From Schmidtea polychroa (taxonomy: Eukaryota), in the NCBI GenBank assembly GCA_044892525.1, contig CM097885.1, positions 33,482,001 through 33,546,000 on the forward strand: a stretch of 64,000 bases of DNA. Reading direction: 5' to 3'. The notes beneath the pieces are model-generated. The model did not search any database. It worked only from the letters and a program-made list of their open reading frames with translations, and had not been told where the DNA came from. Below, in pieces: positions 13,449 to 52,750 of this stretch; the stretch's first letter is position 1; every line of letters begins with the position of its first letter. A program made the position numbers and the translations under genes.

Positions 13449-14383
13449 TTGTCTATATCGCTTGGTATTCTGTAAAGATTATGTATTATCACAAAAATGA
13501 TTTATTAAAATATAATCTGTTGCGTTTTATTTCATTATTTATATAAAATCGATTATCTAGTAAACCAATTACGTCTTAGAATTGATAATTTCAGATATCG
13601 AAACATTCATCAGATAAATTTACGACGGAAGTTTATAAAATCGAATTCAGTCGAATTGATTATTGTAAGAAATGTTCAACATTTTGAACTGGGCCGAATC
13701 AATGTGAACCCCGTTAAGAAAATTTTACGAATTATCATTTAGTTTTTGTTGATAACTTAATTTGTGTCTGTCTTATATATCCATTGTAAATTAAAATTTG
13801 TGTTATTGAATTTTATAGTTTTCTATGGAGTAGATAGTCATCTGATAAAAATTCGTAATAGGACCTTGTATGTTGACATAGAAATGACTGAGGTTATCGA
13901 AATTAACGTATTGTAGACGTCAGTCCTTCGAACGGCCGTCCAGAACCTGAAAAGGAATGGCATGAGGAAGTACCTACTAACGCAGGCGCTCACCTGCCTC
14001 ATGTTTTCCGCCGACATTGCTCAGTTCCAACGTGAACCATCTTCATGGGTGCGTTGTCGTGAAGCAACAGTCATTTAGCGTGTTGTGAGAATCTGATCTT
14101 TACCATCAACTTAACAGTAGAGCCATCGATTTTTCTGTCCAGTTGGATTAGTTTGTTTAAATTCACGAAACTCCATCAATAACAGTTTGATCATTTCGAT
14201 ATTCTGTTTATCGATGTTTTTACATGTTTCAATTTTATGTCAACTTCACGCTATGTTAGCATGCTATTTTTACGTATTTCTATCGCAATTCACTATTCGT
14301 TTTGGGCCAAATATCATATTTTCCCCAACAATATTAAGCCAAATTTATACAATCTGGTGTTGGCGCTCAGGGGTGTGTCATTC

Positions 14384-14954
14384 TCAAAAACCAAGACGAA
14401 TGGTAATAGGGGTAGTTGTGGTTGTTTCAACCCGACAATTAACGTTGTTCGGGACGGGGAGATCATTGGAAGTTTGATTTACGGTGGAAGAAGATGTTGA
14501 CTGAGGAGGCGCTTGACTGGTACCCATACATACGATATCAGGCGTGGGAGATTCCGACCCATGGCTTATGCAGGCCGATTTTGAAGGAAATAATAGATCG
14601 TCGCGCAAACTATGCGCGGGGAAAAAGTTGTCCTGGTCAACTGCTGGGCATTTAGGAACTCGCTTTTTGAGTTCGGCCTTCGTATAGACGTGATAAAGTG
14701 CCTCAGATTGTGACTTTATGGTGATACGCAAGTTTTGATTTTCCGCCAAAATACTGTCCCTGCCGTGTTCAAGTCTCAGAAGTTTTTTATTGACCCCCTT
14801 CATTTGAGCTGGGGTAAACCAAGTACCCTCTAAGAAATCTATCCGCTTTTTTAGTGATCTTATGTCTGCCAGTCCTTGGTTGATCGTGATATTTGTCCGC
14901 GCAAGAGAAGTACGGTTTAAGATTAGACTTGGATATACTTGATCCAGACATTTT
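14384..14954 (-). CDS. Orphan coiled-coil protein, TWF family member A (terminal exon)
   Basis: The frame of ORF 14384-14803 stays open 50 more codons upstream (KCLDQVYPSLILNRTSLARTNITINQGLADIRSLKKRIDFLEGTWFTPAQMKG...) to an acceptor gctaattcatctttttctag. The motif is shared with 17841-18241 and 33320-33740. Confidence 0.6.
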
Positions 14955-15629
14955 CTAGAAAAAGATGAATTAGCTTACGGATAACCTCATTACAACTTGC
15001 ACTGAGAAAATACATCAATCAAAGGTGTACTTTATGGCCTCTCATGCATTCATGCAACCTTCCAAAGTTGGGTATAAATTAACATCACTGCGCTACAACT
15101 ATCATAATTTTCTATTTGGGTCTTGCTATTGAGTAAGAAAATTTTGTTTGCTTTAAACTATGGTAGATGGCAGAGTTAGAATTCAAACTTAATTAAATAA
15201 ATAACAAAAGTAAACATAGAAGAAAACTCTTGTCACCCGTAAATTTTTGATTCAAGGCAGGATGTAATTAGGTATTGTTCCTCTTCAATGTTTATTCTCG
15301 TAAATTTTTTAAGAATGATTATGATTTCATTTTTAAATTAAATTTTAAATCATTATTCCAAATTTTACAGTTATTAGATTTAATTATTAACCCGAGGTTA
15401 TCGATTGTTTATTATACAAGGCTATTATTTGTTTATTCACGATGGAGTTATTATTTGTTCCTTTACACGAGATTATCATGTGTTTATATTTCTCTCTGAT
15501 CTCAGTCGCTTAAATATGCCTCAGTTTAATTCTCACTTGAATACATTTAGTGTAGATACCCATCATAGTTTACATATAATATTTTTGATGTTCGTAATTT
15601 TGGTTCGATGGTTATCTCGTCCTTAATAT

Positions 15630-15858
15630 TGGTGGGTTACTGATTATCAAATATTTTGCTCTTTAGTGCTGTTACCAGCGTAACCCAAGATACAACATTG
15701 TTTACCGCTTGATACCCGTTGAGCGATCAACGTTGGTACTGTATCAAGAGGGTGAGTGCTCGCAAAAAGTGAGCGCACTACTTGCACTGTAATTGTTGAG
15801 CACTCCTTTGGGTTCACGGACTACCGTTAGAAGGTTTATGTCGGCTTTACATGGTCCC
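15630..15858. ncRNA. Conserved structured motif, copy A (unknown family; RNA or ssDNA fold)
   Basis: Collinear with 17464-17697, with stems retained through compensatory changes. The 41-nt core 15708-15748 differs from copy B only in the GNRA loop. Confidence 0.55.
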
Positions 15859-15958
15859 TGTCGTCGGATAGTGCTCACGAAAACCTGTTAACGTGTCTTG
15901 TATTCTTCCACGGTATCAGCTCACCCCACCATTCGTATAAATCATCATTATTCATGGG

Positions 15959-16057
15959 TCAATCTGTCCTACCTTCCCTGAAGATGAGCCAACTTTTCCG
16001 TCTTCGTTGGATCTCCTTGCGTCTGACATTTAAATGAGATTCGTTACCAAAAGTTGT
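15959..16057 (-). pseudogene. Short fragment resembling the N-terminal part of ORF 18668-19168
   Basis: TFGNESHLNVRRKEIQRRRKSWLIFR versus SIGGKADEAVRLREEAEIARLRSRWIWYK; aligned by eye only. Confidence 0.35.
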
Positions 16058-16197
16058 TCATTGCCCTACTTAATTATGGTTTAAATGCTCATCGCGACAA
16101 GCTACTTAGACCGCCTTATCACACCATTCCACGAAAATTTGCAACTAGTCTAAATTTTATTCTTATATTAATTTAGCCTAAAACTAATATTTCATCG

Positions 16198-16331
16198 GAA
16201 AAATTAAAATTTTATAATAAATTAAAGTAATAAATCTTTAACCCGAATAAATAAATTAAGTTAGTGAAAAATTAAAATTTTATAACAAATTAAAGTAATA
16301 AATCTTTAACTTAAATTAATAAATTAAGTTA
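16198..16331. repeat. Tandem duplication, 68-bp period
   Basis: GAAAAATTAAAATTTTATAA(T/C)AAATTAAAGTAATAAATCTTTAAC... at 16198 and 16266. Confidence 0.85.
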
Positions 16332-17423
16332 TATTATTAAATATTTGTTTTAAATGATGACGTAACAGTCATTTACTTATCACCCCAAAGCGGTGAATTC
16401 AAATTTTTATATTTATTTAGGATTTAAATTTTTTAAATAATTATTTATGAAATTGCCACTGTATGCGACCTCGCTGAGAAAGAAGCACTAGCATCGAACT
16501 TTGTTTTCGAAATGCTTGCTTCTTCCTCAGTTGTGGCAGTCATCAGCGGCACGATCCACATTTCTACTCGTTCAGTTTAGTAATTTATATTGTTACATTT
16601 ATTTTCACTAATTTTTCAGGTACAAGTTAGCAGGAATTGTTCCCTTTTTTAGGTTCTGGTCACTCGCTGTGGCTATTTTAGTAGATTGTGGAGAGGCTTA
16701 TTTTTAAATATTCGAACGGAAAGTTTACAACTGAAATCGATTTTAAACCTGAAATAGAAGCGCTAGTCGGAGCACACGGGTATAAACTACCTAGCAAACT
16801 TTTCAGGAAAAGGTGAATTTCCATTCATTATTGGAATTTTATCGGCTCTCAAAACGAACAATTTGCACAATAAAAGTTCCTATTTTGTTTAGTTATTTTT
16901 TTCTCTTTTTTATTCATTCACTGTTATGCTTTTTTATTCTATTTATAATAATAATAATAACATTGATAGCAGTAATAATAATAATAATGATAATAATAAT
17001 CGTAGTAATAATAATAGCACTAGGGTAATAATAATAACACATGCAAAATTATAAAAATTTTTAGGATTATAAAACGACTAGCAATAACCTTAATTCTTGT
17101 TATTATACAACTTGGGGTCTTTAGGGGGAACGGTGGTTATATTTTTATAAGGTTATTTTATAAATTTATATATACATACACATACACATACATACAGATT
17201 TATATATTTAATTTAAATTATTAATTGTGTCGTCGTTTTCTGGGGGGGGGCAGTTACTAAAAATAGATTTTAGTGGTTTTCTAAAATTTTATTGGAAGAT
17301 AGGGTCATTGAAACTAAATTTAGAGATAGGGGAATCCCAAAATCAATAATTTGGTCTATAATTTTATTTTCATGAAATAAAGATAATTATTTTAATAATA
17401 TAATAAAAATAATAATAATGATA

Positions 17424-17463
<40 letters not shown>

Positions 17464-17465
<2 letters not shown>

Positions 17466-17697
17466 GTGGGTTACAGGTATTTTCAAAGTTTCTACCTACT
17501 CCTGCTGTTTCCAGCGTAACCCAGGATACAATTTATAACTGACCACTTGATACCCGTTGAGTAATCAACGTTGGTACTGTATCAAGGGTTTGGGTACTAG
17601 CAAAAACTGAGCATGCTTAGCATACTATAATTGTCTAGCACCCACTGGGGTTCACGGACTGCCGATAGAAGGCCTATGTCCGGTTTCTTTAGTCCCC
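17464..17697. ncRNA. Conserved structured motif, copy B
   Basis: Second copy of 15630-15858. Core CTTGATACCCGTTGA-GTAA-TCAACGTTGGTACTGTATCAAG at 17546-17586. Confidence 0.55.
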
Positions 17698-17840
17698 GTT
17701 ATGATAATCAACATTATAGAAAAATCACAATGTCCAGATATGAGTGTACCAGTAAAGATTTATTCATAACAACAAGATCGGAACTCATAGGGTTGTAGTC
17801 GGTTCTTTCGGTGCAGACTCTGACAAAGTAGCATGGAGGG

Positions 17841-18393
17841 TCAATTGGGCCTGACAGGCTTGGCGGACTCTGCCCGCGCCGCTTTACCCGACCGGATCTT
17901 CTTCTTCGAGATCTTCAACGCATATTCCTTCGGTTGGTGAAACAGTTCACTCATAGGTCGGATCTTGGAAATGACCTCTCGATCAAGGTCCTGTTGGTGT
18001 ACCTTGACCTCCAGCTCTCTCACTCTCAGGCGGAGGGCCCACAACTCAACTTGATCTTGGGCACTCTGGAGTTGCAATTGGGTGATGAGTTTCATCCGCT
18101 TTTTCATCTCTGCTGGCGGAAACCAGGTGCTCTCGAAATTCCGGCAATGGACCTTGATTCGCACTAACTTGGCCCGGTATTCTTCCACCTGTTGTTGCGC
18201 CCGCTCTCTATCTGTTCGCATTTCTTCCAGGAGTTTTAGCACTAAAACAAGATAACGTTAGTGAGATTCATATCAGCATCGAGTGTCGAGCATTATTATG
18301 ATCATCAATACTAAATGAATGCAATCTCTTCGTCGCAGCCCTCCTCTACGCGCACCAAAACCGAGTTCTATGAATCTTACCAAACCCTATCGG
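17841..18393 (-). CDS. Orphan coiled-coil protein, TWF family member B (13-nt micro-exon 18381-18393 plus terminal exon 17841-18241)
   Basis: Open 133-codon frame with FESTWFPPAEMK, heptad-like segments and a basic tail. Acceptor ctaacgttatcttgttttag has a CTAAC branch site. The upstream ag|CCGATAGGGTTTG|gtaag micro-exon joins in frame. Confidence 0.65.
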
Positions 18394-18667
18394 CTGTCAA
18401 TGTTACAGAAAATTGTAGTCGATAATAATAATAGTTAACGCTAAGAACTTTACCAAGAATCAAGCAATACACACAATTAAATTAATATCGACAACCAAAA
18501 CCCAATCAAACATTTAACTAAATACAAACTACTAAGACATAACGAATATTATTTTAATTCTGGGTCAAAGTTATCTAACCCAGTACACAATGTCTCAAGG
18601 TACATTAATAGCGGAGTCATTACAGGATGATTATTTTTATCACAAGACTCTAGTCATGACACAAATG

Positions 18668-19168
18668 TTAGGGGTGTTGTGCAGCGCTGGCTTTCAGTTC
18701 AGTAATCTTCTTGGCGGAGCTGGAGGTTTTTCGTGGGCGTCCGCGTTTTCTCTGCTGGCTCGGCTCACGTTGAGGCTTCCTTGGGTATTCCAGCCCACGG
18801 CGAAGGGCTGCGGTCCGCTTAGTATGGCATTGAGCTCGAGCGTAACCGTCAATATCCTCGAGCTCGCCGGCCAAGGTTGCTGTTTCGAGCCTGTGCAGTC
18901 GGTCCACCGCTCTCTTCGCATCGTCGAAGGCGTCGCTCAGAGCCAATGAAGTAAGATTGATATATGGCTCCACCTTCGGGATCACCGGGACCACATTCTG
19001 GTAGGTCCAATCATGAATCTTATACCAGATCCATCTAGACCTTAGCCTGGCGATTTCTGCTTCCTCCCTCAGTCGGACGGCTTCGTCTGCCTTCCCGCCG
19101 ATACTGTCGGGGCTCCAGTCATTTGACGAGTGACCTTCTTGTACTTTCCTTGGCTCAGTGTTGGGCAT
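18668..19168 (-). CDS. Orphan 166-aa protein with a C-terminal AT-hook (RKRGRPRK)
   Basis: Intact ATG-to-stop ORF, much more GC-rich than the host background. The ATG lies 2 nt after an acceptor-like ttttatcattacag. RKRGRPRK is a canonical AT-hook core. Confidence 0.65.
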   Translation of the reverse strand: MPNTEPRKVQEGHSSNDWSPDSIGGKADEAVRLREEAEIARLRSRWIWYKIHDWTYQNVVPVIPKVEPYINLTSLALSDAFDDAKRAVDRLHRLETATLAGELEDIDGYARAQCHTKRTAALRRGLEYPRKPQREPSQQRKRGRPRKTSSSAKKITELKASAAQHP

Positions 19169-19503
19169 GGCTGTAATGATAAAAGAGAGGTTAAAACGAA
19201 TCCTCGTTCTCCCATTTACGTTCGGTTACTCTAAGACGTTCAATGTACAGTTACATTTAAGATCACCGCGACCCGCATCTCAACGATATCTTAGGTAGGG
19301 AAAATGGACCTAAAATGCTAATTAATTTCCCCTTTCGATTTATTCTTTAATTTAATTTAAGTTGGCTTGAGACTTACGAAATCCAAGTTTATAAGTCTCG
19401 GTTACAGAATTGCAGTTCGTATGTTTAAAGTGGAAATCCATGAGCTTAGTTTTGATGAACTACTGGTTGATACAGTAGAAGTGAGCGTTTAAAATTTTAT
19501 GAA

Positions 19504-19638
19504 TTAAACTTTTAATAGTAGTTGTTTAACTCATGCAAAGATTTAATTTAACTATTTATACCAATCTATATTAATTCAAATTTTAAACTATTAATAGTGG
19601 TTGTTTAAATCATTCAAAGATTTAATTTAACTATTTAT
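19504..19638. repeat. Tandem duplication, 79-bp period
   Basis: TTAAACT(T/A)TTAATAGT(A/G)GTTGTTTAA..CAT.CAAAGATTTAATTTAACTATTTAT at 19504 and 19583. Confidence 0.85.
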
Positions 19639-20625
19639 TCAAATATTATTTTTCATTTTTTAGAATTCTCCATTGATAATTTTTTTGGCAAAGTTTATGC
19701 TACTAGGACCCACTATGGGAAGCGGATGTTGCAAATTGTATGAATTTGTATTCAACTCTTTGTGAATCCCTGACCATAGTGGTTGTAAGTGGCCCTTTCA
19801 TCAGCTGGTGCTCGATAGTAAGTTAAAATTTTTATCTTTTGTAGTTGCATAATTTCAGGAATGGGTCTCTAATTCCTCGGTTTTTAGTATTTCAATCATT
19901 CACCGTATTGGAGTTATTACTGTTTAGTGGAATCCAAAGTATGGCTATACTCCCAATTCGTGGGCATTTAGGTGAAAATTTCGGGGATTTCAGGATTTTA
20001 CTGATCTGTGCCACAGGAATTTAAAGTGAAAATTGGGACTTGAGTTTTTCTGAGTAGTCCCCTTCTAGACATTCCTTAATATTACCGGTAAGATTCTTTT
20101 CGTAAACAAAATTTTTGATTTTATTAAATACATTTTCGCTTTTGTTGATTCTTATTTAAGTAATTTTGTTTGACGTAAATTAATAATTATCGAGTAATTT
20201 TGTTAACTCCTCATGAGAACCTATATAGTTAGTAATCATGACTTGTTATTATTCCTTACCTTTGGTCCTACTGGGTGGGTATTCCGATTCAGACCGTTAC
20301 TTTCGGGGACTAGGTCCCGTGGCTTACATGCGATCTACTTCTGGGGTAACAAGGGTTAAATTCGCATGGGTGAGATAGGTTTTATCGAAAGATTAGAGTT
20401 TCTACTGACATGGTCGATGGCGATTGGCTCGTGTAGTGGAGAGTATGTGCCACCTATTCGGTCAGTTAGGAGTAGTTCGTAGGGGGTACCCCTTGGTTTG
20501 CAGGGTTGTTACTAATAATAGAAGCGGTATTATTGGTCCAACTTTGTTATGAGGGAAAGGAAAAATCGATACTGTCGGTTTTGAACTTTCCTATTAATAG
20601 TAACGTTTTATTGATAATCATGTTA

Positions 20626-20626
20626 C

Positions 20627-20686
<60 letters not shown>

Positions 20687-20960
20687 TAAAATAATAACAA
20701 TAATAATAAAATAATAGTATTAGTAATAGTAATAATAATGGTAATGATAATAATAATGATAATAACAATAATACTAATAATAACAGTACTATTAATAATA
20801 ACCATAATGATAATTATGGTAATAGTAATGGTAATAATAATGATAATGCTAATGATAATAATAATAATAATGATAATAATAGTAATAATAGTAGTGATAT
20901 GATAATAACCATAATAATAATTATAGCAATGGTAATGGTAACAATAATAATAATGCTAAT
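20626..20960. repeat. (AAT)n / degenerate (RRT)n microsatellite
   Basis: Pure AAT run followed by AAT/AGT/GAT/GGT variants. It explains the poly-I/poly-L ORFs at 20506-21059. Shorter tracts at 16946-17035 and 17395-17463. Confidence 0.95.
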
Positions 20961-23379
20961 GATGTTACTAGGAATGATAGTAGGAGTTGTTGTCTTAGAA
21001 TAATTCAATTGACGACTATATGATTCGAAGGGGTAGTTATAGAAGATTTTTACAATCAAAATATATACATATCATTATCATAATTATGGGAAAAAATACG
21101 GTTGAGTTTTAAAAATTTATAAGTATTTATATAATATATACTACAGTAAACACAAAATCTTTACGGAATTGATTAAGGGTTATCCTATAATTAGGCAAAT
21201 AGACATGAACCAAAAATCATATTTTATTTTATAGTATCTATATAACTAGTATATGTATGACAAAAACTTTGAACTAATTTAGGCATTTAAGGGCATTCAT
21301 ATGGCCCCAAAATGAGGACTCTGTTTTAATTCCAAACAGTTATATAACCGATGCTTACTAGGTAAGGCAATAAACATAAAAATACTTTGAAATAACTAAA
21401 GTGATGATTTATAATTATTCGAATAGATATGAAGTAAGGATTATATTTTAATTTTTAAAGTATTTACCTAGCCAGTATATAGTATGTATGACGATGAACA
21501 GGAGAACTTTCATGGAATGATCTGAGAGTCATTATATAATAATTAGTCACATTCATATAAATGTTAATAGATAAATTCTTATAACACGATTCTAGAGGGT
21601 GGGGTTTAATAATAAATCTCTATTAACCAAACAATAGGGCTACCGGGTATATGTTTAGCGAACGTCCTTGGGTAGGGCAGATTCTAATATATACATTTCT
21701 AAAATAGTCAGGTGATGTTGATACTAGTAAGTATATGTAGAAAATCTTTTATCTAGTACCAAGTTAATAATTAGTATAGGCATATATCTCCCTGAAATAC
21801 ATTCTAATGATATCGGTTTGGAATATAATGTCCACATTAACCTAAAATTATATGAAGCACAAGTTTGGCTCGCATGGGTTTAAAATCGTTATCCAAGAAT
21901 AATTACACCATCGCATTTAAATTAGATTCGGGCTTTTTGATTATAAACTTTCGGATTTAAATATGATTACCAGTAATCTCGATAAGAGTAAATTAATAAT
22001 ATTTGATATCAAAAATATTAAACATTTGAATAGTTTGTGTAATTAGCCGACTATTTGAGAACTTTCGTGATCATTTAAGTCTGGGATATTTCCCGTTTAG
22101 ATTTTCTTAATGATGTATTCCTATAGAATAGTTGAGTGTGTATTTTAGATATGTCGTTTACCGGAAGGTCGAATTAATTAAAATTTTCCTACTTTCCCGA
22201 CTCAACTGAATACGGTACGATAGGCCTTATTGTATTATGTTTCCCGCGATTACTAGCCCAAATTTTATTTCGTCCGCATAGTCCCTGCGACTATGCCAAC
22301 TACCTGAATGGATTTACCGCCCTACTCCTGGTTAGAAACCATTTGTTCGTGGCGACCTTCCGGTTAAAAAAAAATGAAATTTTGTGCATGTAGGGTCGTA
22401 GACCCGATTGTGTGCGTGTGGACTATCAGTTGGAAACAAGGCTGATCAGCGTCGCGAATACAACCCGTCGACGACGCTGGTCATTCTTGTTACGTAATAG
22501 TAAAATGATGATAAAAAGGACAAAATTAATAATTAATATAATTTAGCATAAAATAACAATTATATAATCGATAAAAATCAATCACCCTTACTTTCAATAC
22601 TTGGTGTTTCAGAAAAAATTTTTGGCATACAAAAATATCTAAATTGTGACGAAAATGCGTCGGTATATATACCTGTTTTGTACACGTGTATGTATTGATG
22701 CATTAAAACAAACTCGAATTCTTTTTATTCCAGAATTTTCTATTTTGTAATTTTGATATTTTTAATGGCAATTTTTGTGCCATAATTTTTGTTTTTATTT
22801 TTAAATTTTTATTCTTTAATTATTTTTTGTTAATTTTACGTCCATGATGGATTTGGAACGGTTCCAGAAAATTCCATATTACTTTTAATTTAATTTTTAT
22901 TTTAACTGATGTTCTCTGAATTTCTTTTTAAGATTTTTTTATTTTTATTACTAATTTATTTACTTTTTCTAAATTTTATTGTTTAAGGTAGCTTTTATGA
23001 TGGTCATCGCCATTTTTATGGAATGTTCTGGGTTTTTCTGGAATTTTTTACTGTTTTTACCGTCTTTTAAGTTATTCGAGTTTGTTTTTTGTGACTCTAT
23101 GTTTATTTGGTTATTTTTGAGTTCGATGTTGCATAACTTCTTGCTTTTGGTATAATTTTATTTAATTTCTGTGTTTATGCTTTTGTTGTTTTCCCCTTTG
23201 ATTAATATTGTTTATTTGGTGTATTTTTTTAATATTTAACTACACTTTTTGCATGTTGTGTACCTACGCATTTCAGCCACAATTAGAAGTTTGGGTCTAG
23301 AAATCAGTTCTAGCCCAACAATAATAATAATAACGATAATAATAATAATAAATGTAAATTTAGATGCTTATAAGATTAC

Positions 23380-24535
23380 CACATATGGGGGAGGGGTCAT
23401 TTACGAAAATTTATGAATTTATATTTTTAAGTGAAATATAATTTAACTGTCTATGAATATGATATAATTCAGTATACCTACGTAATAGTTAATGGCTACA
23501 TGATTTGAGGGGGGTCGGTTAAATAAAAAATACCAGTTATATTTTTAAAGGTAATATAAGTTGAATATATCTGAAAACAAATTAAATTAATACTTTTGGG
23601 TAATCATTAATGACTATATGATCTGAGGGGGGTCATTTATGGAAATATACAATTTATAGTTTTAAATATAATATAAGTTAAATATATATTAAGATAAGCT
23701 AATTTAGTATATTTAGGTGGTGGTTGATGACTATATGGTTTATGGGGGGGGTCTTTAATGAAAAATTTTCAACTATGATTTTAAAAGTAATATAAGTTAA
23801 GTATATATATAAAATAGTCTAAGTTAATGCTTTAAGGGAGTGGTTATATGATTTAAGAGAAAGTTATTTATGGAAAAATTATAAATTATAGTTTTATAAA
23901 TTTGGTATCTGTACATATATATGTTAATTTATATTGTTTTCGACTATTCGGTAACTTAGGGGGTAGTTAGGGAAAGTTTAATAATTTATAATTTTATGGA
24001 TTTATTTTCAATTTATAAGTAAGTTAAATCAGCACTCTTGACATAAATTTGAGCTACCATACTACTTGAGGGAGGCATCTGTGAAAGAAGGTAAATCATA
24101 CTTTTATAAGTTCTAATATGCTTATATATGCTTTATATTATTAACATTAGCCCCTTTTGATTATGATATAACTTAGGGGGGGGTAGTAATGAAAGATTAC
24201 AAATAATACTTTATAAGTTCAAAATGTGCAATTATAGTTTGGAATATTTCTTTGAACATGTGTTTTGGCTATTATACAACCTGAGAGGGTATTTAGGGAA
24301 AATTTTATAAATTATAATTTTATGAGTTTATTATACATGTATGTATTTTAGATTAATATTTTTAACATTGATTTTGACTATTATACAATTTGAGGGAAAA
24401 AAAATAAAAATTTTCTTAGAAAATTATAATACATACTTAAGAGAATCTAGTATATATATATATATATATATATATAACTTATATTAATAATCCTAAGGTT
24501 TTTCTTATGGCTACACCTCTTAGGGGTGGGACAGT
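23380..24535. repeat. Diverged tandem array of ~11 units, mostly ~105-120 bp, each anchored by a G-run
   Basis: Anchors TGAGGGGGGTC-like at ~23386, 23506, 23623, 23740, 23852, 23956, 24066, 24173, 24282, 24390 and 24520, followed by similar AT-rich blocks (...TAATATAAGTT...). Confidence 0.85.
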
Positions 24536-25124
24536 TGTACTTGAAAGTCTATATTTTCCTTGGTTTTGATTTATGCTTTATGTTGAAATAATATTTATGC
24601 TTGCAAGTTATCCATGTAGCCTTGTTTTGGTTATGATTGAGAACAATTTTAACGTAGATCTATTTTGTGGATCCCTATATCATATCTAGAGAAATTTATG
24701 CCTGTAAAATATCATTTCAACAACTTTTGAGTCGAATGAAAAGCACTTTTAGTGGAGAATTGTTTTTGTTATGAATCTATATATTGTAATTACATAACAT
24801 TTGTGTCGACAATTTACTTTTTATAGCTATTCAACTTAGTGTAGAATAATGTGAAGATGTTGCCCGAACTTATAAGTTATAGATATAATATTAGTAGTTT
24901 ATAGATAAAGAGACTTTGTAAATATGTCTACGGGAGTTTGCACATACCAAGACCATTACGATAGAGAAATTTAGTTTGCATCAAAATAGGTTATTTTGTG
25001 GGCATCTATAGATATTAGTTCGCTTACCAGTGCGATTGAGATTATGTCATCTTAGGTCCTACTCATCGCATGAACTTTAGGTTGCAGTATTCTTACAGGG
25101 AATAGTTCAGAATTTTTGAGTCTT

Positions 25125-25503
25125 TAATGATGGATTTTTATGAATTGTTCTGGATTTTTATTCGAAATATCGATATAATTTTCTTTTCGTAAGATTTTAT
25201 GGAGATTTTCTTTAATTTTCTTTTTGAATTTTTTCTAATCGCCTTTATTCGAATTTGTTTTTTGTTGTTTTATGTCTTTCGGTTATATTTGAGTAGGTTT
25301 TCGTGTAATACTTCTTGCTCGTGTTTTATTTTATTTTTAATTCAGATGTTTTATTTTTGGGTATATCATCTCTATTATTATTGTTTACTTGGTGTTTTAT
25401 ATATTTTTATTTAAGTAAACTTAATACTGGGTATGCGTGTTGTGTACTGACACATTTCGTCCCATTCCTAACTTTGGGTTCAGAAATCAGTTCTAGCCCA
25501 ACA
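25125..25503 (-). mobile_element. Second, diverged copy of the LTR-like terminus (homologous to ~22990-23320)
   Basis: AGAAATCAGTTCTAGCCCAACAATA is identical at 23299-23323 and 25482-25506. Collinear similarity extends ~350 bp to the left. Confidence 0.7.
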
Positions 25504-25505
25504 AT

Positions 25506-25960
25506 ATGATGCATAAGATGGCTGATTCATGGTTACTATCGTTAAAAGTGATGGATGTAAATTCAACCGACCAGACGTGGATTTTGATAATCAATCGAAG
25601 ATTATGTGATAAAATCGAGGACAAAAAGCTGGAATATATAAATCCGATGACGATGGAACAGGATGGAAGCGTTACATCTTTTACAGTAAGTCAAACCCAG
25701 AGGCGTGTCTGGATATTAGCAGTTCTTATGACGGTATTTATTTTTGGCTGACGGCCACCCACTAAATTGTAGCACCAATATTGCTTATGACATGCATTTA
25801 GTGGTCAATTAAATAATTATGCCCGATTACGAAGGGAAAGGTGTAGAATCAAAAGTATTTACAGGACAATTCGAGTACATGCATTAAAAGCACTGAAAAA
25901 ATGTAAAAATAATGGAAATGAAAGGAGCATAAGGGCTAGGAAATTATTTTGGACTGGATC
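25506..25960 (+). pseudogene. Mutator-like transposase remnant
   Basis: Frameshifted pieces LDISSSYDG..WLT.(G)H, DMHLVVN*IIM, SKVF and ALKALKK occur in the order of the DIxVSYDGTWxxRGH...VVDYxIMSK...DGDSK...ALRxL pattern of Mutator-like transposases. Confidence 0.4.
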
Positions 25961-26324
25961 CACGAAGTTTGACTACGTTTCTCCTTATATTAATGATCAA
26001 GAAATCTTAGGCTAGTCTACATCGCCTTTATCATTATTTTTTCTTTACTATATTACATTTAAGTTAATATATATTACAATTACAACATTAAAAACAAATT
26101 TTGATTACAAAAATTCAATAGATTACAAAAAAATAATTTAATGATAAATAATTTGTAATTTATCGAAAAATATTTTGACAAATGATTTTATATGTTAAAA
26201 TTAGTTTTTGTAAATTGTTTGATTGTTTAACTCTATTTTCAAGGTTAAATTATGGTCTTAGTTTATTGCATGATTCTTGACCTAAATTGTTTTATTTCGA
26301 TTTTATTATAAAGTTCGCCTTAAA

Positions 26325-26493
26325 ATGAAGTATAGTTTACGCATACTACTTCTCTTTATTGTTGGAGTATCTTTTGCATATGTAACTCATTTTTTGCAAA
26401 ACAACAATGGTGGTCTTTTCAATAGAGGATTTAATATATTTGGATTATTTGGACCATCAGTTTGGATTCCTGTATTTTGTGGCATCACAGCAG
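26325..26493 (+). CDS. INSIG: Insulin-induced gene protein (INSIG), exon 1
   Basis: MKYSLRILLLFIVGVSFAYVTHFLQ...SVWIPVFCGITA aligns to INSIG R..VLF..GV.LA.V...LQ...WVP..CG.A. Phase-1 donor G|gtttga at 26494. Confidence 0.85.
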
Positions 26494-27039
26494 GTTTGAT
26501 TTAGTTCTATTTGTAATGATTATGGGGATACTTTTATCTTAAAAATATACTTATCTAATAATTCTTTTTAAATAATTCACAGATTTAATTTTTTAAATAA
26601 ATCTGTGTTTCGGCGGGTTTATTTTTGACAATATGATTGTCATTATAAATCAAAATTGAATACTAGTCATTTTGAGCATTTTTAAAAATTTACTAATTCT
26701 ATTTTAAAACGAAATACACATGAAAACAGTATAAGTCGTATATAGCTCTTTTTTGGTAGATATGTATCAAACTGAGATGTTAAATAGTTTTTAACTAATT
26801 ATAATTGTTAAATATGTTAGAAGGACGATGGGTTTATTATCTTTGCTATATGAATCGTGATTTTTTGCATTTATTTGCAAGTTATTCTTATCATAAAATG
26901 TTCATTTTTCAAATTGAACACTCACAATATATATATTTCATACATTTGTGCCAGCGCAGTAGGAGTTCTACAAATGCATTTTTTTGAAGAAATGCACATC
27001 CTTTTTTCGAATAACTCTTTGACTACGCGCTATAAATCC

Positions 27040-27260
27040 TCTGTCTGTGAATGCTAATAATCAGATAAGAACTATAAAAAGCGTCAAGCCAACCTGCTCA
27101 ATTCTGACTTTCGAAATATCTACTTTATGAACAGGCACATTGTCATGCAAAAACCACAGTGGCGTCCCTGCCTGACTTATCCCTATCTTTCTGGCTATTT
27201 CTATAAGGTTGATGGAGTACTCGGTATTAATCTCAATTGAAATTTAATAAAGATAGAGAA
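27040..27260 (-). pseudogene. Tc1/mariner transposase DDE fragment in the INSIG intron
   Basis: Translation INTEYSINL...PLWFLHDNVPVHKV resembles the I.S..Y...L / F.HDNAP.H catalytic block. Confidence 0.5.
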
Positions 27261-28411
27261 TCCTTCTGATAGTTAGACTGCAAAAACACCTCAATTTCAC
27301 TGCTGATTTTCTTTTGCAATACAAAGAATTTTATCAATTTTTGATTGACAATTTTTCAAAATTTTGGCTTCTTGGTATCCGACCTCCTTAATGTAACCTG
27401 AGACTTCTTTTTTGATTTCATTGTATCTATTTTTGTTTTACGGTGGCTCAGCTGAATCAATCCAACCCCAGCATGTACGATCAATACTGCACAATTAGCT
27501 TTGGATGTTCTAGTAATCATATTTTGAAATCATCAATAACGGTGACGTAGTAGTTTGAGGTTTCGAATGTCAGAACCAATACTTATTGTTATCTACTATA
27601 TAATAACTCGAGGACGATATCACGAGAATTTAAAAATTCAAATTTCCCACTCTTTATCAAGATTCTTTTTGAAGTGATCAAACTTATACCAAAAATATTG
27701 TCATGAAAGAGTTATTGAATTAAAATAAATATGAATTAAACCACATATTGAATCTATTTTTTAACATACAAATTTATGTATTTGAATTGATAACATGATT
27801 TCGTCCTTTTATAACTCTGAAAGGTTATAGCTAGTAAACTTATAATAAAATGTGTTATACATTGTTACATTGCTACATAGAAAATTATGTATATTAGGCC
27901 AGGAACCTAAACGCACCACATACTCTTTAATTTAAAGCGCAATCAGGTATTTATTTTAATATACTTTACATTAATATACTTATTACTGACATTAAAAATG
28001 TTTCTTGTGCAAAAATTACTGGTATTCAATACAAAAGAGTTGTTATTGTTTTTACTCGACAATAGGTTTATCAAACAAAAGCACTCACAACTAACGTTAA
28101 GATATTTTAAAATATTGTAGATGCCATAACTATTTTTAGCTAATTAACTGTGAATTGCACTGTATTATTGTAATTGCACACCAGTTATTATACCTGAAAA
28201 TTTAATGATTACAATTATTAATAATCATTTTTTTACTTTTTCGTTGACATCAGCAGAAAACTAAATGAAGATCAATGAAATAAAAAAAAAACCAGATCAA
28301 AGATATATAATAATAAAAATAATAAAAATTTGGCTTATACTTATGCAGTGCAGATGAAACAAATTGTAACATTATTCACTAGTAATAAGTTATTTCAAAA
28401 CCTTTATGTAT

Positions 28412-28442
<31 letters not shown>

Positions 28443-28518
28443 CAAACTCGCGGGCCACTAAGAAAATCTTGGCAGGCCAGCCAATTTCGTAACTTAATTT
28501 TTAAAATTTCTATTTATA

Positions 28519-29632
28519 CATAAATGGGGAGTCGGAGTTGGAGTCAGAGTCGATAAAAATCAATCGACTCTTCGACTCCTTTTCCACTTCGAAAAAATAA
28601 TAATTTAAACTTCTCTATTTCACACACGTATGTTAAAGTTGCGAAAAACATGAATGCAAATAAAATGCAGCAGGTTATCGGTCTAAAAACCGAACAATGC
28701 GTGGATAAAAGGCGAACAATAGTTTTACTACAAGATCCCAAAAGAAATAAGAACTAATGTGTCTAGAGAGAGAATTTATTCAATCTTTATTTATATGTTT
28801 AATTTATTCCATTATAAAACGAAACAGTTGGTTAAAATTTAATGCAGCGAAATAATTAATAACTTAAAGTATAAAATACATGCAGTGCTTTAATTCCTAA
28901 AAAATAATAACAATAAAAAAGAAAGTTTAAGCTATATAATTCGTTTATCTCTCTTAAATGTCCGCGCTCTCTAGTCTCTAACGTTAGATATCGATTGTTA
29001 AGCCTAACGCAATTATCACAGAGTCCCCCTCTTTCAAATCGGAGACTTAACTGGTTATATCCGGTTTTTGATCTCTCGATGAAAGGAAATCCGAAAGTTA
29101 TTAATTCCGTCTTAAATTAATAAACTTTGATAACTCTAGTTTTTACCATTGAGTTTAATGGTAAAATTAAATCTATTTACAGACTTGATTTAAAGTTTTA
29201 GGCCGAATACTTTGTTCGTTAGATAATTAAGAATTCGGAGTCATGATACAACGTAAAACATCGCCGTCAAAATAATATTTACGAGTGCCAGCCTTATTTC
29301 AAAGGGTGACAATTTTCCCGGTTTTAAAATTTCTTCAGCTGCATTTGGAAATTCGTAACTCCTTTACTATTTATCTTATATATATATATATATGAATTTC
29401 GTGAAGCTTCTTCTATCAGCGTAACGTAAAACAACTATCTAAAAAAAATATTATTTTGACAACCAAATTTCAAAGGTTAACAAATTTTTCAGTGATAAAT
29501 TTTCGGAATCAAGTAGTGCCTTAATGAAACTGAAAGGAGTCGAGATTCGAGAGTCGGAGTCGATGAAAAAAATATAGACTCCGGAGTCGGGAGTTGGGAG
29601 TCGATCGTTTTCCAATCGACTCCCCATCCCTG
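28519..29632. mobile_element. Non-autonomous DNA transposon (hAT-like) with GGAGTC subterminal repeats, in the INSIG intron
   Basis: TIR 13/16 (CATAAATGGGGAGTCG versus reverse complement CAGGGATGGGGAGTCG). Clusters of GGAGTCG/CGACTCC at both ends. TSD not recognisable. Confidence 0.7.
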
Positions 29633-30769
29633 GTAAATAGTACCGATGGATGGCAATACTACAGAGCTAGATATATTTAATTGTGTTTATGAACTTTCGC
29701 AAAAATACCTTTTATCTCTTTCAAAATTGACTTAGGTAGCAACAGATAGAGCTCCTTCAATAACCGGAAAAACTAACAGTTTATTATTTCTTAAACTATG
29801 AAGTTTTTAGTAACCAAAATCAAGACGTCAGCTTGATTTCTAATCTAGTAAGGTTTCAAAATTTATTCGTCATGGTTGATATAATAAAACTCTTATTTGA
29901 TTTCGATTTAAAACTGCAAAGAAAAGATCAGATATTTACAAACATTTGAGACCAAGTTAAATAATTTAAACGTAAGCTAGTTCATATGTAAAAACAGTTA
30001 AAAAATGAAAATTTGTCGCAATTTCCGACTTGCAGCATAAAATAATAAAGTTTAGATAAAACTGAATCTTATTATTTTTTATTTGTTTTTTTAATACTGT
30101 TTGTTTTGAAATAAACTTAAATTTCTTTGAAAATCGTAGTTGTAGTTGATTTGCCTTGACTTGGTTGCATAAACTAATTTATTTACAAAATGAATAAAAA
30201 TAGTTAGGTAGAAACTTTAAAAGACCAAGAAATATTCATAAGCTCATTTATGTAGGAAAATAAAGTGTTTAATAGTGAATATATATAAATATTAAATATA
30301 TAAATGTGAAACGTTAAAATCAAAGTTAAAGTAATTTATAAAAATAGAATAATTAAAAGTTGAATCGAAACTGCTAGGTTGAAATTTAGCGATAATTCTC
30401 AAAAAAACAAAGTACTATCGTTGTTTATAAAGAAAAGGATACAGAAATAAAATTTGTTTGAAAAAGAAAAGTTGTAAAAATATTATGAATAGAGAAATTT
30501 GCAAATGAAATTTAAATTAATAAAAACAAAGTCTTACAAATAATAAAAATTTCGAGTTAAACATTTATAGTTGTTATGTGAGTCACACATTAAATAAAGT
30601 TCAAATCCAAATTTTGCAATAAATATTTTACTGGAATTATCGTGATTTTGTAAAATATTTATTACATACGAACTTTGAATTTTGAATTTGTTTCGTCGAT
30701 AAATTTTATTTAAGTAATTTGAATTCGAGCATAAATTTACATTATTTTTATAAATTTCATTCATTTTAG

Positions 30770-31191
30770 TTTTTATTGGATGCCTTTATCCTTGTATCGA
30801 CATAAAATTGGGGCAAATAAAATTTTATAATCAAGAATGGGCAAGTGTGTTGCGATGTATGGCACTGTTTCTTGGTATCAATCATGCTCCAGATAAATTA
30901 GATTTCACATCAGATTCCCAGTTACAGTTCTCTCTATTAGCTATGTGTATCGGTCTTTGGTGGTTATTTGACCAATCCTTCACTGGCTTAGGGTTAACTT
31001 CTGTCACTACGTTTTTGGTCACGATGTCTTATCGGTTGTTAGAATACATTGGATTATACCGACTCAGTCATCCTGAAATGCATAGTTGGCTGCCATTTGT
31101 TTTCTTTTCTGGAACAGTTACAGTCGGTATTGTTGGTAGACAGTTGGCAAAGTCGGACATCCTGGAGATAGTCAAATTAAAAAATCAATAG
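30770..31191 (+). CDS. INSIG: INSIG exon 2 (complete protein 196 aa)
   Basis: Acceptor tcattttag at 30769, in frame with exon 1. Reads VFIGCLYPCID..EWASVLRCMALFLGINHA..KLDF..GLWWLFD..G.GL..SWLP.VFFSG.VTVG.VGRQLA. Confidence 0.95.
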
Positions 31192-32037
31192 AATTCTTTG
31201 TCCATCATATTCTCGCCTGATGTTTCTTAAATTTTATTACGATACATTCTGTATATTGATGATTGTTTTTTAAACAGAATTTGGTCCTTTGTCATTAATA
31301 ACGACGCCAAAAGCAAAATATAATGTATATAAAGATGTTTTAATGTGATACTTTTCATTTATATAATTTTGCCATTTAATATTTTAGAAAATAAATGTAA
31401 TATCGATCGTTTTATTTATTAGTCGCTCGTTTGAATAATACAATAATCAATTTATATTTTAATGATAAAATATATTTTTACATGTAAAAATTGTTAAACT
31501 CCTTTATTCATTCTTATACATAATACACTATTTTTTGTGTGAGAACATAGTGAGTTGAATTGATTCTACTTAAACAGCAAAATTTTTCTCTAAAATGTTG
31601 GAAAGAAATTTTAAGCTCACAAGAATAATAGGAACATTTCACCAAATCCTGGTAAAAGGAAAGGTAAGTCAATAGTAAAATACACCTAACTTGGTAAACG
31701 TCCATTTTTGGTAACGTCCATAATAATTAAATAAGTTTTATATTATAGAAGTAAATGCACAAATGTACCGCATATTTATAGAATACGCATAACATATGAT
31801 ACAATCCACCAAGACATTGAAAAATGTTTATGTGAGTTATTTTAGATATTGAAAATTGAAGAATGCCTTAAAAGGCTAACGTGCATATAGAGAAAAACAT
31901 AAATAGATCAAATAAAAGAGCTGCGAATTTCAAACTTTATTTTTATTGAACCACCAAATAAAAAAAATATCAAAGATCAAATCAAAAACAAGAGGTGAAC
32001 ATAAACACCTATAGGTGTGCGATAGAGGTGAACATAA

Positions 32038-32183
32038 ACGAGAAATTCTGTATATAATATCCAATCGTTCATAAGAATCCGAAAAATAGTTGATTATCAT
32101 TATTAGCGGAAATTTCATACAACATTCGAGAGCATTCAATTTGATATCCAAAGTCGACAAATCTGACAATCAGACGTAATATT
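32038..32183 (-). repeat. Dispersed repeat, copy 2 (see 8084-8245)
   Basis: Reverse complement nearly identical to 8084-8245 apart from an internal indel. Confidence 0.85.
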
Positions 32184-32801
32184 TTCATAAACTCATATAG
32201 GGTCTGGGTTGTGAGGAGCTTCATTTGCAACAATGTATAATATAGCATTTGTTTTGGAAAATAAAAATAAAAGTCGAGTTAGTGGCGGTTCAACATTAAA
32301 AAAAGAAAGTGGTTGGAGAGCGAGCTTCTTGGTCACTCTTACGGATAGAGCAAGTTAAAAGTGTTTTCATTTTTTAAATTTCAAAATTATTTCAGTTTTA
32401 ATCATAAATTGGTAAAACAACTTTTGTTTTTTTTTCTTCTGACAACCTTTGAAAACTGCTGAGATATAGCATTTACCAATTATTAATAGTCAATATGATA
32501 TTGGGGTGATCTTTGTTGTGAAAAAAAGAATAACAAATAACAGGAAAAATAAGACAAATGAAGAGAATGTTTCTTTTTAGAAGAATTGATTGTTTAAATA
32601 TTGTTGGGATATTAAGAAATTGTCGTTAGGAATTTGTTTCATTCTGCCTCAATCAAATCTCACAAAATAATTTTATTCAGACAAAAATTGATTACATTTT
32701 TATTTTCCAAAATCTAACAAATGCTAAGATACTCCATAGATATCACTTTCAAATCAAAAATACAAATCTGGTTAAACTAACTTTATTCGAATAAATCGCT
32801 T

Positions 32802-33000
32802 TGTTGAGGATACCTAAATAACAAATAGTATATTAAATAAGTAAATTTGGAGGAAGATCGTCATGACAAATGGGACGATCTATGGAAACTCCAAGAAGAA
32901 AACGGAAGTAAAAAGAAATGAAAAATCAGAAAGATAAATCAAATAAAAGAAAAAAAACAAGAAATTAAAACAAAGGTCTAATTATCGGTGATTACATTAA
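32802..33000 (+). mobile_element. 5' fragment of an LTR related to the LTR at 34633
   Basis: TGTTGAGGATACCTAAAT..AAATAG...ATCGTCATGACAAA is shared with 34633 onwards. A probable opposite-orientation LTR end (TGTTGGG) lies at ~32602. Confidence 0.7.
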
Positions 33001-33319
33001 TATATTTTATTAATTATTATTCAATTGTAGACATGTATGGATTTTTATATTTATTAGTTTGCAATGTACTCAATTTAATTTTTATTTCTGATTACTCTAG
33101 CACTATAAATCTCTTGACTTCCAGTTGAAAGGACTATCTCAACCTATTTAGAATTTTTATTTATTGTTATCTTTAATACGACGGATTCCTAAATGGTATC
33201 GTCCTTCGCTTTTAATCAAATATTAAATTCTCTTCAGACAACCAATTAAAACAATAACAACTTTATTTTCATAATTAGGCAAGCGATTAAACAATCATAT
33301 ATAATAAAATGTTTCATTT

Positions 33320-33740
33320 TTACTGAGATGCATTTGTGCTCATCTTCAATTCCCGGAAGCGCCTTCTTTTTAGTTTTACTGGCCTCGGTTTACAAGACCT
33401 TTTGTCAATTGTGAGAACTGTGAGCATTTTTGACAGTAAGGCTACAATTGTCGGAAAGAGCTTGTTCTGCCGACTTCAGCCTCTATGTGGGTTCCTATTA
33501 CATTTCCAGAATTCTTTGAGCTTGCTCTCGGATCGGGATCTTAAGATCACGAAAGATTCCCTGATCCTCGACCCGAAACTTCTCCATGACTCAATCTTCT
33601 GATTTAATTTGCGCATATGTTCCGGTCGGAACTATGTCACTTCCATTCGACGGGATTTCCGTAACATCGATTCTACTCTTCTAATCCCGCTTCTGAAGTA
33701 TATCAGACTACCTCCTGCCAGAATCTTTATATTGGATCTA
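33320..33740 (-). pseudogene. TWF family member C, two in-frame stops
   Basis: RMEVT*FRPEHMRKLNQKI, with TAG at 33632-33634 where members A and B have TGG. The frame runs ~140 codons with two stops and has a basic tail. Acceptor gactaacttgattttag with CTAAC branch lies at a similar distance upstream as in A and B. Confidence 0.6.
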
Positions 33741-35357: not shown

Positions 35358-35513
35358 CAAAAGTTGGTGAAAAATAAATTGTTGAAAGGACAATTGTGAA
35401 AATAAAGTGTGATAAATTAAAATTATTAAAGTTAATTGTGAAAAGGTAAATTATTTATTGTAGTAATAATTTGAGATTTAGATTTGTGCAATTTGAGAAA
35501 ATAATTTATTAAA

Positions 35514-52521: not shown

Positions 52522-52750
<229 letters not shown>

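Follow-up and report, generated by a model that had tools for sequence, protein, structure and literature searches.

An orphan gene with a predicted coiled-coil product that may lie within a solo LTR of a giant Gypsy-type retrotransposon in Schmidtea polychroa

We analyzed a window of 64,000 nt from Schmidtea polychroa (GCA_044892525.1, contig CM097885.1, positions 33,482,001-33,546,000, forward strand) in which three minus-strand exons share a short peptide motif, designated members A (14384-14954), B (17841-18241) and C (33323-33740). Member B is contained in a 5.9-kb unit with defined ends, and this unit is likely the solo LTR of a giant, Burro-sized retrotransposon of Gypsy type. The reading as a whole, to which we give an even chance, is that B is an orphan gene within this LTR whose product is a coiled-coil regulator, with A and C as its relatives. 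The window also contains mir-753 (74 bits), a family which we take to be planarian.

Two related elements are nested around B. The inner element, 5,857 bp in length (17464-23320, minus strand), runs from TGTTGGG to CCCACCA on the minus strand and is flanked on both sides by ATAA within an (AAT)n tract, a microsatellite that fixes the length of the duplication only as 1 modulo 3. It is inserted into an outer relative (15630-25503, minus strand) that spans 9,874 bp, about 4.0 kb of which is its own sequence, and that is bounded by an ATAT duplication (15626-15629 and 25504-25507). The left ends of the two elements are 75% alike over 240 nt and the right ends 66% alike over ~400 nt. Comparison of the terminal 500-bp segments gave no long inverted repeat in either element, the best match being 8-11 nt apart from an imperfect tip of 7-20 nt. 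Additionally, repeat detection identified a tandem array with a 118-bp unit within the outer element (23393-23828).

The integrase signal of Metaviridae has been described as TGTTRNR...YNYAACA, with AATAAA and a GT-rich stretch as the other conserved feature of their LTRs (PMC3601003), and for the Drosophila Gypsy 412 and Idefix clades the typical duplication is given as 4 bp with an ATAT core, and for BEL/Pao as 5 bp (PMC3276498). In both of our elements TGTTGGG is a full match to TGTTRNR, CCCACCA departs from YNYAACA at one base, and the duplications (ATAT/ATAT for the outer, ATAA/ATAA for the inner) are 4 bp long and AT-rich, as for Gypsy types. BEL/Pao was rejected because the 5-bp flanks are unequal and the 4-bp flanks equal in both elements. 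As far as these sources describe 412/mdg1, Idefix and the animal Metaviridae, the likeness extends to the duplication, the terminal signal and, on the minus strand of the inner element, the AATAAA with its GT-rich stretch, whereas LTRs of 4-6 kb, two acceptor-bearing ORFs, a conserved fold of 240 nt and a CCCACCA 3' end set the units here apart.

Close counterparts are the Burro/GYPSM1 elements of planarians, described with an internal part of up to 25 kb and a total of more than 30 kb, which are alike in host type, implied multi-kb terminal repeats, tandem repeats, thousands of copies and accessory ORFs; the 4.0- and 5.9-kb sizes and the internal tandem repeats found here fit that description, which rather than Burro sequence was the basis of the comparison, whereas the extra domains described there belong to the polyprotein or an upstream ORF and not to spliced LTR genes (PMC6431247). 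Counting against an LTR, the window holds no full-length element. Furthermore, no PBS or polypurine tract lies beside any element end, and loose contig ends, which gave 2-4 flanking letters at 3 termini, included no PBS. Because none of these was seen, the LTR status stays at likely. In the history that we consider reasonably probable, an integrase would have inserted a full element with two repeats and recombination between its LTRs would have left one, such that the minus-strand LTR would consist of U3/R (carrying B and a second orphan ORF, O1), AATAAA and a folded U5.

The downstream part of this arrangement can be followed on the minus strand, where an AATAAA poly(A) signal (17759-17764) and a T/G-rich stretch occur 300 nt before the end of the inner element, with AATAAT at the matching place of the outer element (15947-15955). 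The inner element then terminates in a conserved folded end (17464-17705, minus strand) with a closing stem of 7-8 bp followed by CCA (z -3.94 on the minus versus -1.99 on the plus strand), and the matching end of the outer element (15630-15867, minus strand) behaves likewise (z -3.38 versus -0.30). Compensatory changes affect 6 of 59 pairs, a covariation drawn from two sequences and reached by 7 of 500 shuffles. For genes in sense orientation to sit immediately ahead of the poly(A) signal, the R region would have to be unusually long or a promoter would have to lie internally; we located neither of the two, which counts against our preferred explanation.

The same solo LTR could also be read in plus-strand sense, O1 and B then being antisense accessory genes and B having a role in chromatin, silencing evasion or structure rather than in export. 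The introns of O1 and B would in that case be invisible on the packaged strand and would thus survive retrotransposition, and plant Gypsy elements are described as commonly having extra antisense ORFs whose products are nuclear (PMC7264820). The termini are, moreover, nearly symmetric, and plus-strand signals include a TATA-like TATATAA (22561) and, as a rival poly(A)-type signal, ATTAAA at 22702 with a T-rich 600 nt to the right end, which resembles R-U5. The right end of the outer element folds better on the plus strand as well (z -4.0), but that of the inner element is without a fold (z -1.2), and the family's most conserved and most abundant portion, situated past the AATAAA where a U5 is expected, has its fold on the minus strand alone. 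On this evidence we consider the plus-strand reading unlikely.

Under the preferred minus-strand solo LTR, the inner element carries two putative genes. B has a Met at 18221 that is also present in P0001, an 85% copy and the sole protein relative of B recovered by three sequence searches, Pfam and two fold searches; P0001 is in frame with B across 123 aa, and the similarity ends just upstream of the acceptor. No other relative emerged from the same searches; the structural comparison proposed in the first-pass annotation, made with the two fold searches, gave no known relative. Near 17871, the window copy of B has a frameshift relative to both P0001 and the bulk of the X2 contig depth. O1, of 166 aa (18668-19168, minus strand), has a C-terminal AT-hook-like KRGRPRK (PF02178, E 0.0054, 16.9 bits, just below the cut-off of 17.4) and, at 19171, a candidate AG acceptor that precedes its ATG by two bases. 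Among the variants listed, 3 of 3 in the O1 core are synonymous; the 13 coding variants listed comprise 5 synonymous and 8 non-synonymous, most of the latter sitting in the O1 N-terminus or being private to the window copy. The earlier annotation had passed over what is informative here, namely the element, O1 and the folded end.

Acceptors with a branch site had been predicted at 14955, 18242 and 33741, and all three are present; the pattern of branch point, pyrimidines and YAG, which was tuned after the sites were seen, has only 18 occurrences across the entire minus strand, these among them, and the chance of such an acceptor 90-135 nt upstream of a random position is 0.0125. The motif had been placed 35-45 codons past the acceptor, which agrees with A (41) and B (36) and not with C (32). 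A persisting exon layout was also proposed, which does not fit the unlike intron phases (A 2, B 1, C 2), such that the three exons could not use one common upstream coding exon. A candidate intron of 139 nt precedes B (18242-18380, minus strand), with donor G/GTAAGA at 18380, branch CTAAC and a strong acceptor AG at 18242. For the spliced reads expected across the acceptors, contigs were examined; no spliced join occurs among the 15 listed of 115 joints, and a contig from the poly(A)-bearing run X12 spans the B acceptor unspliced (18173-18283). We regard it as quite probable that O1 and B are translated from spliced, LTR-initiated transcripts that use the acceptor before each.

Copies of these sequences are abundant in the same species, with 9,567 contigs from run X2 and 4,508 from X5 on 13500-20600, most of them less than 99% alike. 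Summed X2 depth, which is not copy number, was ~108-212 for unique contigs and 7e5-1e6 for the folded ends. It reached 1.1e5 in the B exon versus 1.1e4 and 2.6e3 in two upstream bins, 2.8e4-3.6e4 in O1 versus ~3e3 on either side, and 2,413 in the A motif bin versus 493 and 533 in the adjacent bins, an exon/intron contrast that can also arise if AT-rich introns drift faster or assemble less well.

Retained introns would need no extra machinery if the units moved at the DNA level, as complete non-autonomous elements that are either Ginger-like DNA transposons or members of an undescribed integrase-mobilized class with asymmetric ends and their own spliced genes. The window shows lone units only, an RNA end like an acceptor stem plus CCA is present, and, as a weak sign, four additional T stand beside the element end in one X12 contig. 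However, there is no transposase within the units, and a DNA transposon would not be expected to have one end with a strand-specific RNA fold; we hold this alternative to be quite unlikely. Ginger1 and Ginger2 are reported, like the units here, with TG...CA ends, 4-bp duplications and introns in their genes (candidate introns in the units here), and are further described as having inverted repeats of 40-270 bp and CCGG/CCGT targets (Ginger1) or 50-180 bp and RTATAY (Ginger2) (PMC2836005). Both were rejected: the best inverted match here is 8-11 nt, the targets (two sites only) are ATAT and ATAA, and an integrase-like transposase is absent from the units. Of the TGTNR termini of Ginger, TGTTG is found at one element end and TGGTG at the other.

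The wider family was proposed from three motif peptides on the minus strand, and these were confirmed in place, with the motif E at 14830 in A (motif 14830-14801), 18134 in B (18134-18105) and 33643 in C (33643-33614). The motif pattern occurs 3 times in the window versus 0 in 40 block-shuffled windows, a count that overstates significance since the pattern was derived from the same three sites. Compared with shuffled controls, the proposed homology stands for A and B (local score 64, 0 of 2000 shuffles), which are mutual best non-self matches among 1818 six-frame segments, and stands modestly for A and C (score 52, 3 of 3000; 50 versus a maximum of 36 in 60 shuffles when alignment allowed for frameshifts). 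It does not stand for B and C (897 of 3000), nor is P0001 significantly similar to C (1011 of 3000), and with a profile from A, B and P0001, C ranks first among non-members at an E of only 0.053. Membership of C is inferred from a marginal alignment together with its acceptor. We consider A and C likely to be older, damaged relatives of B. Damage is present in all three window copies. The previous description of the family as element-encoded, selected and unrecognized applies well to B (defined ends, a target duplication, many divergent copies with much greater depth in exons than in introns, and only an 85% copy found), with selection indicated indirectly, in part to A (copies at 82-88% identity) and by inference to C.

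If only A and B were related, C would be a chance look-alike and the ORFs passively carried and non-functional, which would agree with the B-C result, the profile E-value, the damaged window copies and the lack of a spliced join among the joints listed. Against this, C has a rare acceptor at the right distance and aligns to A, exon depth exceeds intron depth for A, B and O1, and the open frame is kept in P0001 and B, making this possibility very unlikely.

The AlphaFold model of B consists of a helix at 2-39, a break and a helix at 42-92. Its predicted homodimer score was 0.56 versus 0.01 for the best of 3 controls, with contacts that agree at 94% or more among runs and a partner pLDDT of at least 80; on eukaryotes, 17 of 29 true homodimers and 0 of 30 single chains attained this mark, which may also be passed by generic coiled coils through likeness. 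B is accordingly predicted to form a parallel coiled-coil homodimer with an interface that includes motif residues 38-40, 42 and 45. The W-F-x-P-x-x-M motif would be a kink packed in this interface, leaving free the basic tail, which is present in both B and P0001; the folded RNA region lies 140 nt downstream.

Such a protein may act as the element's regulator, most likely in handling unspliced RNA. With introns on the element's sense strand and kept in many copies, we guess that the packaged RNA must exit the nucleus unspliced. Our tentative guess, made with low confidence, is that B would be a Rev/CERV-like adaptor that uses its basic tail to bind the folded LTR RNA, and that O1 would regulate transcription of the AT-rich LTR through its AT-hook. 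Among Gypsy elements, a spliced export protein has its precedent in CERV of C. elegans Cer1, described as an orphan, lineage-restricted accessory protein from a spliced mRNA, with predicted multimers, that is needed for export of unspliced RNA (PMC10309623); B resembles neither CERV nor Rev in sequence or fold, and for B the export role is a proposal. [quoted passage not shown]

In stem cells, planarian giant retroelements are reported to rank with the most active elements (PMC6884822). The descriptions of them that we found cover only the polyprotein, and the literature found, with Grohme et al. 2018, supplements and Repbase outside its scope, describes neither the B protein nor any ORFs located in Gypsy LTRs of planarians. 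If the multi-kb LTRs of these elements do contain two spliced regulatory genes together with a conserved RNA element, each solo LTR would be a potential source of both proteins, repeated in a genome thousands of times, and an early/late switch like that of complex retroviruses, known among Gypsy elements from Cer1/CERV, would operate in these elements. Annotators should also expect these exons to be called orphan host genes.

The 4-6 kb units might instead be self-contained, integrase-ended elements that encode a coiled-coil RNA adaptor and an AT-hook regulator in spliced genes of their own and that have risen to thousands of copies with no gag-pol; their transcript would end in a tRNA-acceptor-like stem plus CCA that primes or recruits a helper reverse transcriptase. 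This reading seems to us very doubtful. Penelope-like (Terminon/Athena-type) pieces, with intron-bearing coiled-coil ORFs beside a structured pseudo-LTR and insertion into microsatellites, are highly improbable, although the inner element sits within (AAT)n and PLEs are described as retaining introns, favoring microsatellites and carrying coiled-coil ORFs (PMC8557442, PMC6431247). Both elements have fixed TG...CA ends and 4-bp duplications, the window contains two intact-ended units with no tandem or inverted partial copies and no PLE reverse transcriptase, and an Rfam scan to E 1 gave no hammerhead, with 8 bare core-pattern matches, 0 of them in the folded ends. Naiad and Chlamys PLEs are also without a hammerhead, so its absence excludes some PLE clades only.

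Members A and C lie apart from the nested elements. The claimed TGG to TAG change in the motif of C was verified as an in-frame stop (33632-33634) in a decayed exon with further breaks, including at least one more stop. A possible terminus of its element (32602-32608, minus strand; ATAT/TGTTGGG on the plus strand) is found 720 bp past C, with no partner end in the window and no similarity to the B-type folded end. A, located outside the outer element, has no in-frame Met ahead of its motif and no assignable element ends in the window. The part common to its other copies is 14476-14954; two contigs from these copies cease to match at 14476, so the final ~30 codons of A's frame probably fall outside the family sequence. 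Just past A lies an old, diverged end of the B-type element family (14190-14330, plus strand), which ends in CCCAACA/ATAT, is 66% identical to 25365-25512 (E 1e-4) and has single-copy depth.

The E-x-T-W-F-x-P-x-x-M motif is encoded on the minus strand in three exons, A (14384-14954), B (17841-18241) and C (33323-33740), and the first-pass annotation had placed all three motif peptides correctly. A and B, which it held to be related, aligned significantly against shuffled controls (local score 64, reached by 0 of 2000 shuffles) and were each other's best non-self match among the 1818 six-frame segments of the window. C aligned modestly with A (score 52, 3 of 3000 shuffles as good; with a frameshift-aware alignment 50, shuffle maximum 36, n=60), and without significance with B (897 of 3000 shuffles as good) or with P0001, a database copy of B (1011 of 3000), while a profile of A, B and P0001 matched C at E 0.053; the proposed three-way relationship thus holds for A-B and to a modest degree for A-C, and is not significant for B-C. 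The best support for C as a family member is provided by the splice acceptors: a branch-point/pyrimidine/YAG pattern, defined after inspection of the three sites and occurring 18 times on the entire minus strand of the window, lies 32-41 codons upstream of the motif at 3 of 3 sites (chance 0.0125 per site), so that the predicted acceptor ahead of each motif stands but its predicted distance, 35-45 codons, does not. Against a persisting exon layout, the intron phases of A, B and C are 2, 1 and 2, and B has its own Met where A has none ahead of the motif. Damage consists of stops in C, of a frameshift in B near 17871 relative to P0001 and to most of the contig depth in sequencing run X2, and in A of the probable loss of family sequence beyond 14476, as judged from two contigs of other A copies. 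We conclude that the orphan protein family is real.

Searches with B against proteins of near length yielded one match from 15 candidates, P0001, which was also the only match among 1.84 billion representatives; it is an unnamed ENA gene call, 85% identical to B, on a 638-bp contig, and its cluster has two members, both unnamed ENA entries, whose contigs measure 549-638 bp. The protein libraries were queried with B, with alignment A2 and with O1, a second orphan ORF (18668-19168, minus strand, 166 aa, with an AG two bases ahead of its ATG). For A2, 0 of 8000 longer proteins scored, and in viral and metagenome contigs two sets of pattern matches, 261 and 260, gave 0 confirmed each; for O1, 0 of 199 candidates matched, and the ORF is a multi-copy orphan without relatives. 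None of A, B, C, O1 and P0001 passed the Pfam cut-off, an AT-hook in O1 falling slightly below it (E 0.0054). In the ESM Atlas the best cluster for B was zgc:113691 (0.95), which we set aside as a generic coiled-coil match (144 shared features, low recognition 1839) and whose name had no match in the literature; the best for O1 reached 0.82. Foldseek returned 0 matches in the PDB and none below E 0.001 in the viral set.

For B, AlphaFold with a 3-row alignment predicted a helix at 2-39, a break at the motif and a helix at 42-92, with the basic tail disordered (mean pLDDT 76.5, pTM 0.36), and aliphatic residues occupy 9 of 14 heptad positions of the second helix in B and 9 of 12 in A. For two copies of B 1-100 the prediction was a parallel dimer in register (0.56 vs 0.01 for the best control; contact agreement at least 94%, pLDDT at least 80). 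Among eukaryotes, 17 of 29 true homodimers reached this mark, as against 0 of 30 single chains; coiled coils may pass it through their likeness to solved ones. The predicted interface includes T38, W39, F40, P42 and M45, suggesting that the motif is conserved because it forms a packed kink between two coiled-coil segments.

Self-comparison of the window revealed two repeat pairs, 15624-15861 with 17458-17699 (75%) and 22928-23323 with 25106-25506 (66%), which mark two nested elements, the first pair at their left ends and the second at their right ends. ATAA stands on either side of the inner element (17464-23320, 5,857 bp), which lies in an (AAT)n tract, and the outer element (15630-25503), which contains a 118-bp tandem array, has ATAT on both sides; read on the minus strand both start with TGTTGGG and finish with CCCACCA, and neither has a long inverted repeat between its ends. 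The minus-strand order within the inner element is O1, a donor at 18380, an acceptor at 18242, B, AATAAA (17764, minus strand) and a 240-nt end region. The A exon falls beyond the outer element, in the interval from an old right end at 14330 to the outer element's left end, and a candidate terminus of C's element, lacking a B-type fold, lies at 32602, 720 bp from C; no second end for either terminus was found in the window, and nothing homologous to O1 precedes A or C. The 70-bp repeats flanking C at 32802 and 34633 were rejected as its LTRs, the similarity extending past the TG...CA unit; 32802-32955 and 34633-34793 (plus strand) are 68%-alike starts of another family, TGTTGAGG...TGACA, followed by a lysine-rich ORF. 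In this window of ~28% GC with AAT microsatellites, CCCA[A/C]CA termini followed by ATA or TTA number 7 in 64 kb vs 0.46 expected (maximum 4 in 200 shuffles), on the plus strand at 9992-9998, 14324-14330, 23314-23320 and 25497-25503 and on the minus strand at 32602-32608, 17464-17470 and 15630-15636. At right-hand ends of the element family a small hairpin closes on the terminal motif, and the family may make up a major share of this genome. The outer element also has a strong donor at 15924 and a 25-aa ORF (15947-16029, minus strand), possibly a remnant of its own gene, which ends at AATAAT, the counterpart of B's poly(A) signal.

The end regions of both elements fold on the minus strand, with z -3.94 in the inner and -3.38 in the outer copy (0 of 200 shuffles as good for each), vs -1.99 and -0.30 on the plus strand. 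Compensatory changes between the two copies affect 6 of 59 consensus pairs with 0 broken, a covariation drawn from two sequences only and equalled by 7 of 500 shuffles. The folded end terminates in a 7-8 bp stem and then CCA, and was recognized by neither ARAGORN nor Rfam; it is not a tRNA gene, because the tRNA scan found none, and a hammerhead ribozyme reading was dropped after an Rfam scan and a core-pattern search. The 22-nt conserved end pattern had 0 matches in viral and metagenome contigs.

Parts of 14000-20500 occur in 11 of 18 listed sequencing runs, none recorded as RNA. Aligning the contigs of four runs on 13500-20600 at 80% likeness gave 9,567 contigs in X2 and 4,508 in X5, most of them less than 99% alike. 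Summed X2 depths, which are no copy number, reached 7e5-1e6 on folded ends. The B exon had 1.1e5, vs 1.1e4 and 2.6e3 in the two adjoining upstream bins; O1 had 2.8e4-3.6e4, vs ~3e3 each side; and the bin with the A motif had 2,413, vs 493 and 533 each side. Unique contigs had depths of 108-212, and X5 repeats this pattern. The peaks on exons suggest that divergent relatives retain exons, not introns. Of the 40 variants listed, out of ~1,190, 13 fall within the O1 or B coding sequence, 5 of them synonymous and 8 non-synonymous, and 3 of 3 listed in the O1 core are synonymous. No spliced join occurs among the 15 of 115 joints listed. Run X8 is uninformative on expression because introns are covered throughout, and it may be DNA; X12 contains RNA, as a loose end with poly(A) at one of the host genes shows, and its two low-depth B contigs, one unspliced across the acceptor, fit unspliced element RNA, pre-mRNA or DNA alike. 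A separate low-copy repeat at 13850-14172 has a ~85% match to 2.6-4.2 kb contigs in X2 and X5.

We read these units as probable solo LTRs, in either orientation. Their ends agree with TGTTRNR...YNYAACA, the integrase signal of Metaviridae; AATAAA with a GT-rich stretch is the other conserved LTR feature in the available text of PMC3601003, and the inner element has a candidate for it. The 4-bp duplication resembles the ATAT duplications of the Gypsy 412 and Idefix clades and led us to reject BEL membership, BEL/Pao making 5 bp (excerpt of PMC3276498). The multi-kb repeats with tandem arrays of Burro, a giant Gypsy-like planarian LTR retrotransposon, fit those found here (excerpt of PMC6431247). 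Assignment to Gypsy would follow from ends and target duplication. We favour the minus sense, since the fold then comes after the poly(A) signal, as U5 would; a plus-sense LTR with the genes antisense inside it agrees with the same ends and appears unlikely. Slightly less plausible still is a lone non-autonomous element, Ginger-like or of a new type; membership in Ginger itself was rejected, its long inverted repeats being absent here and its target different (excerpt of PMC2836005). That C arose by chance and decay, the ORFs being passive, would suit the B-C comparison; with an acceptor ahead of its motif we regard this as improbable. A Penelope-like origin is very improbable, the units having been judged non-members by their ends and by an Rfam scan without hammerhead.

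Under the solo-LTR reading, U3/R would carry O1 and B as accessory genes that are expressed through splicing, and the inner element would be comparable in its working to the accessory-gene-bearing LTR region of a complex retrovirus. With putative sense-strand introns retained in many copies, the packaged RNA would have to be exported unspliced, a problem solved in the Gypsy element Cer1 by the export protein CERV (excerpt of PMC10309623). By analogy, B, with its predicted dimeric coiled coil and basic tail beside a conserved RNA fold, might be an RNA-export adaptor and O1 a DNA-binding regulator, putative roles that we offer as a guess; older sub-families would have left A and C as remnants. 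We found no published account of the protein family or of genes in planarian Gypsy LTRs, and Grohme et al. 2018 or Repbase may already annotate the repeats; the available excerpts of PMC13238120, PMC11410931, PMC5408684, PMC6839031 and bioRxiv 10.64898/2025.12.11.693146 contain nothing on these LTRs.

The window also holds a plus-strand Gypsy gag ORF (35505-36134; PF03732, E 2e-8), decayed plus-strand Gypsy gag/RT/RNase H pieces (6344-8101; PF17919, E 2e-10), and an 83% match in inverted orientation between 8081-8245 and 32038-32186. Broken hAT-type transposases lie at 10847-12438 (plus strand) and 41284-43148 (minus strand, with a hAT dimerisation domain and a zinc finger of the Spin-doc type); 43260-43433 is a tandem duplication of 87 bp. 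Host genes, all on the plus strand, are a TMEM50-like gene named by eye (12923-13448; the X12 loose end is at 13529), INSIG (26286-26504 and 30754-31191; PF07281) and asparagine synthetase (50889-59246; PF00733). A precursor of mir-753, a planarian microRNA family whose presence suggests a planarian host, lies at 38122-38183 on the plus strand (74.3 bits vs a gathering score of 62).
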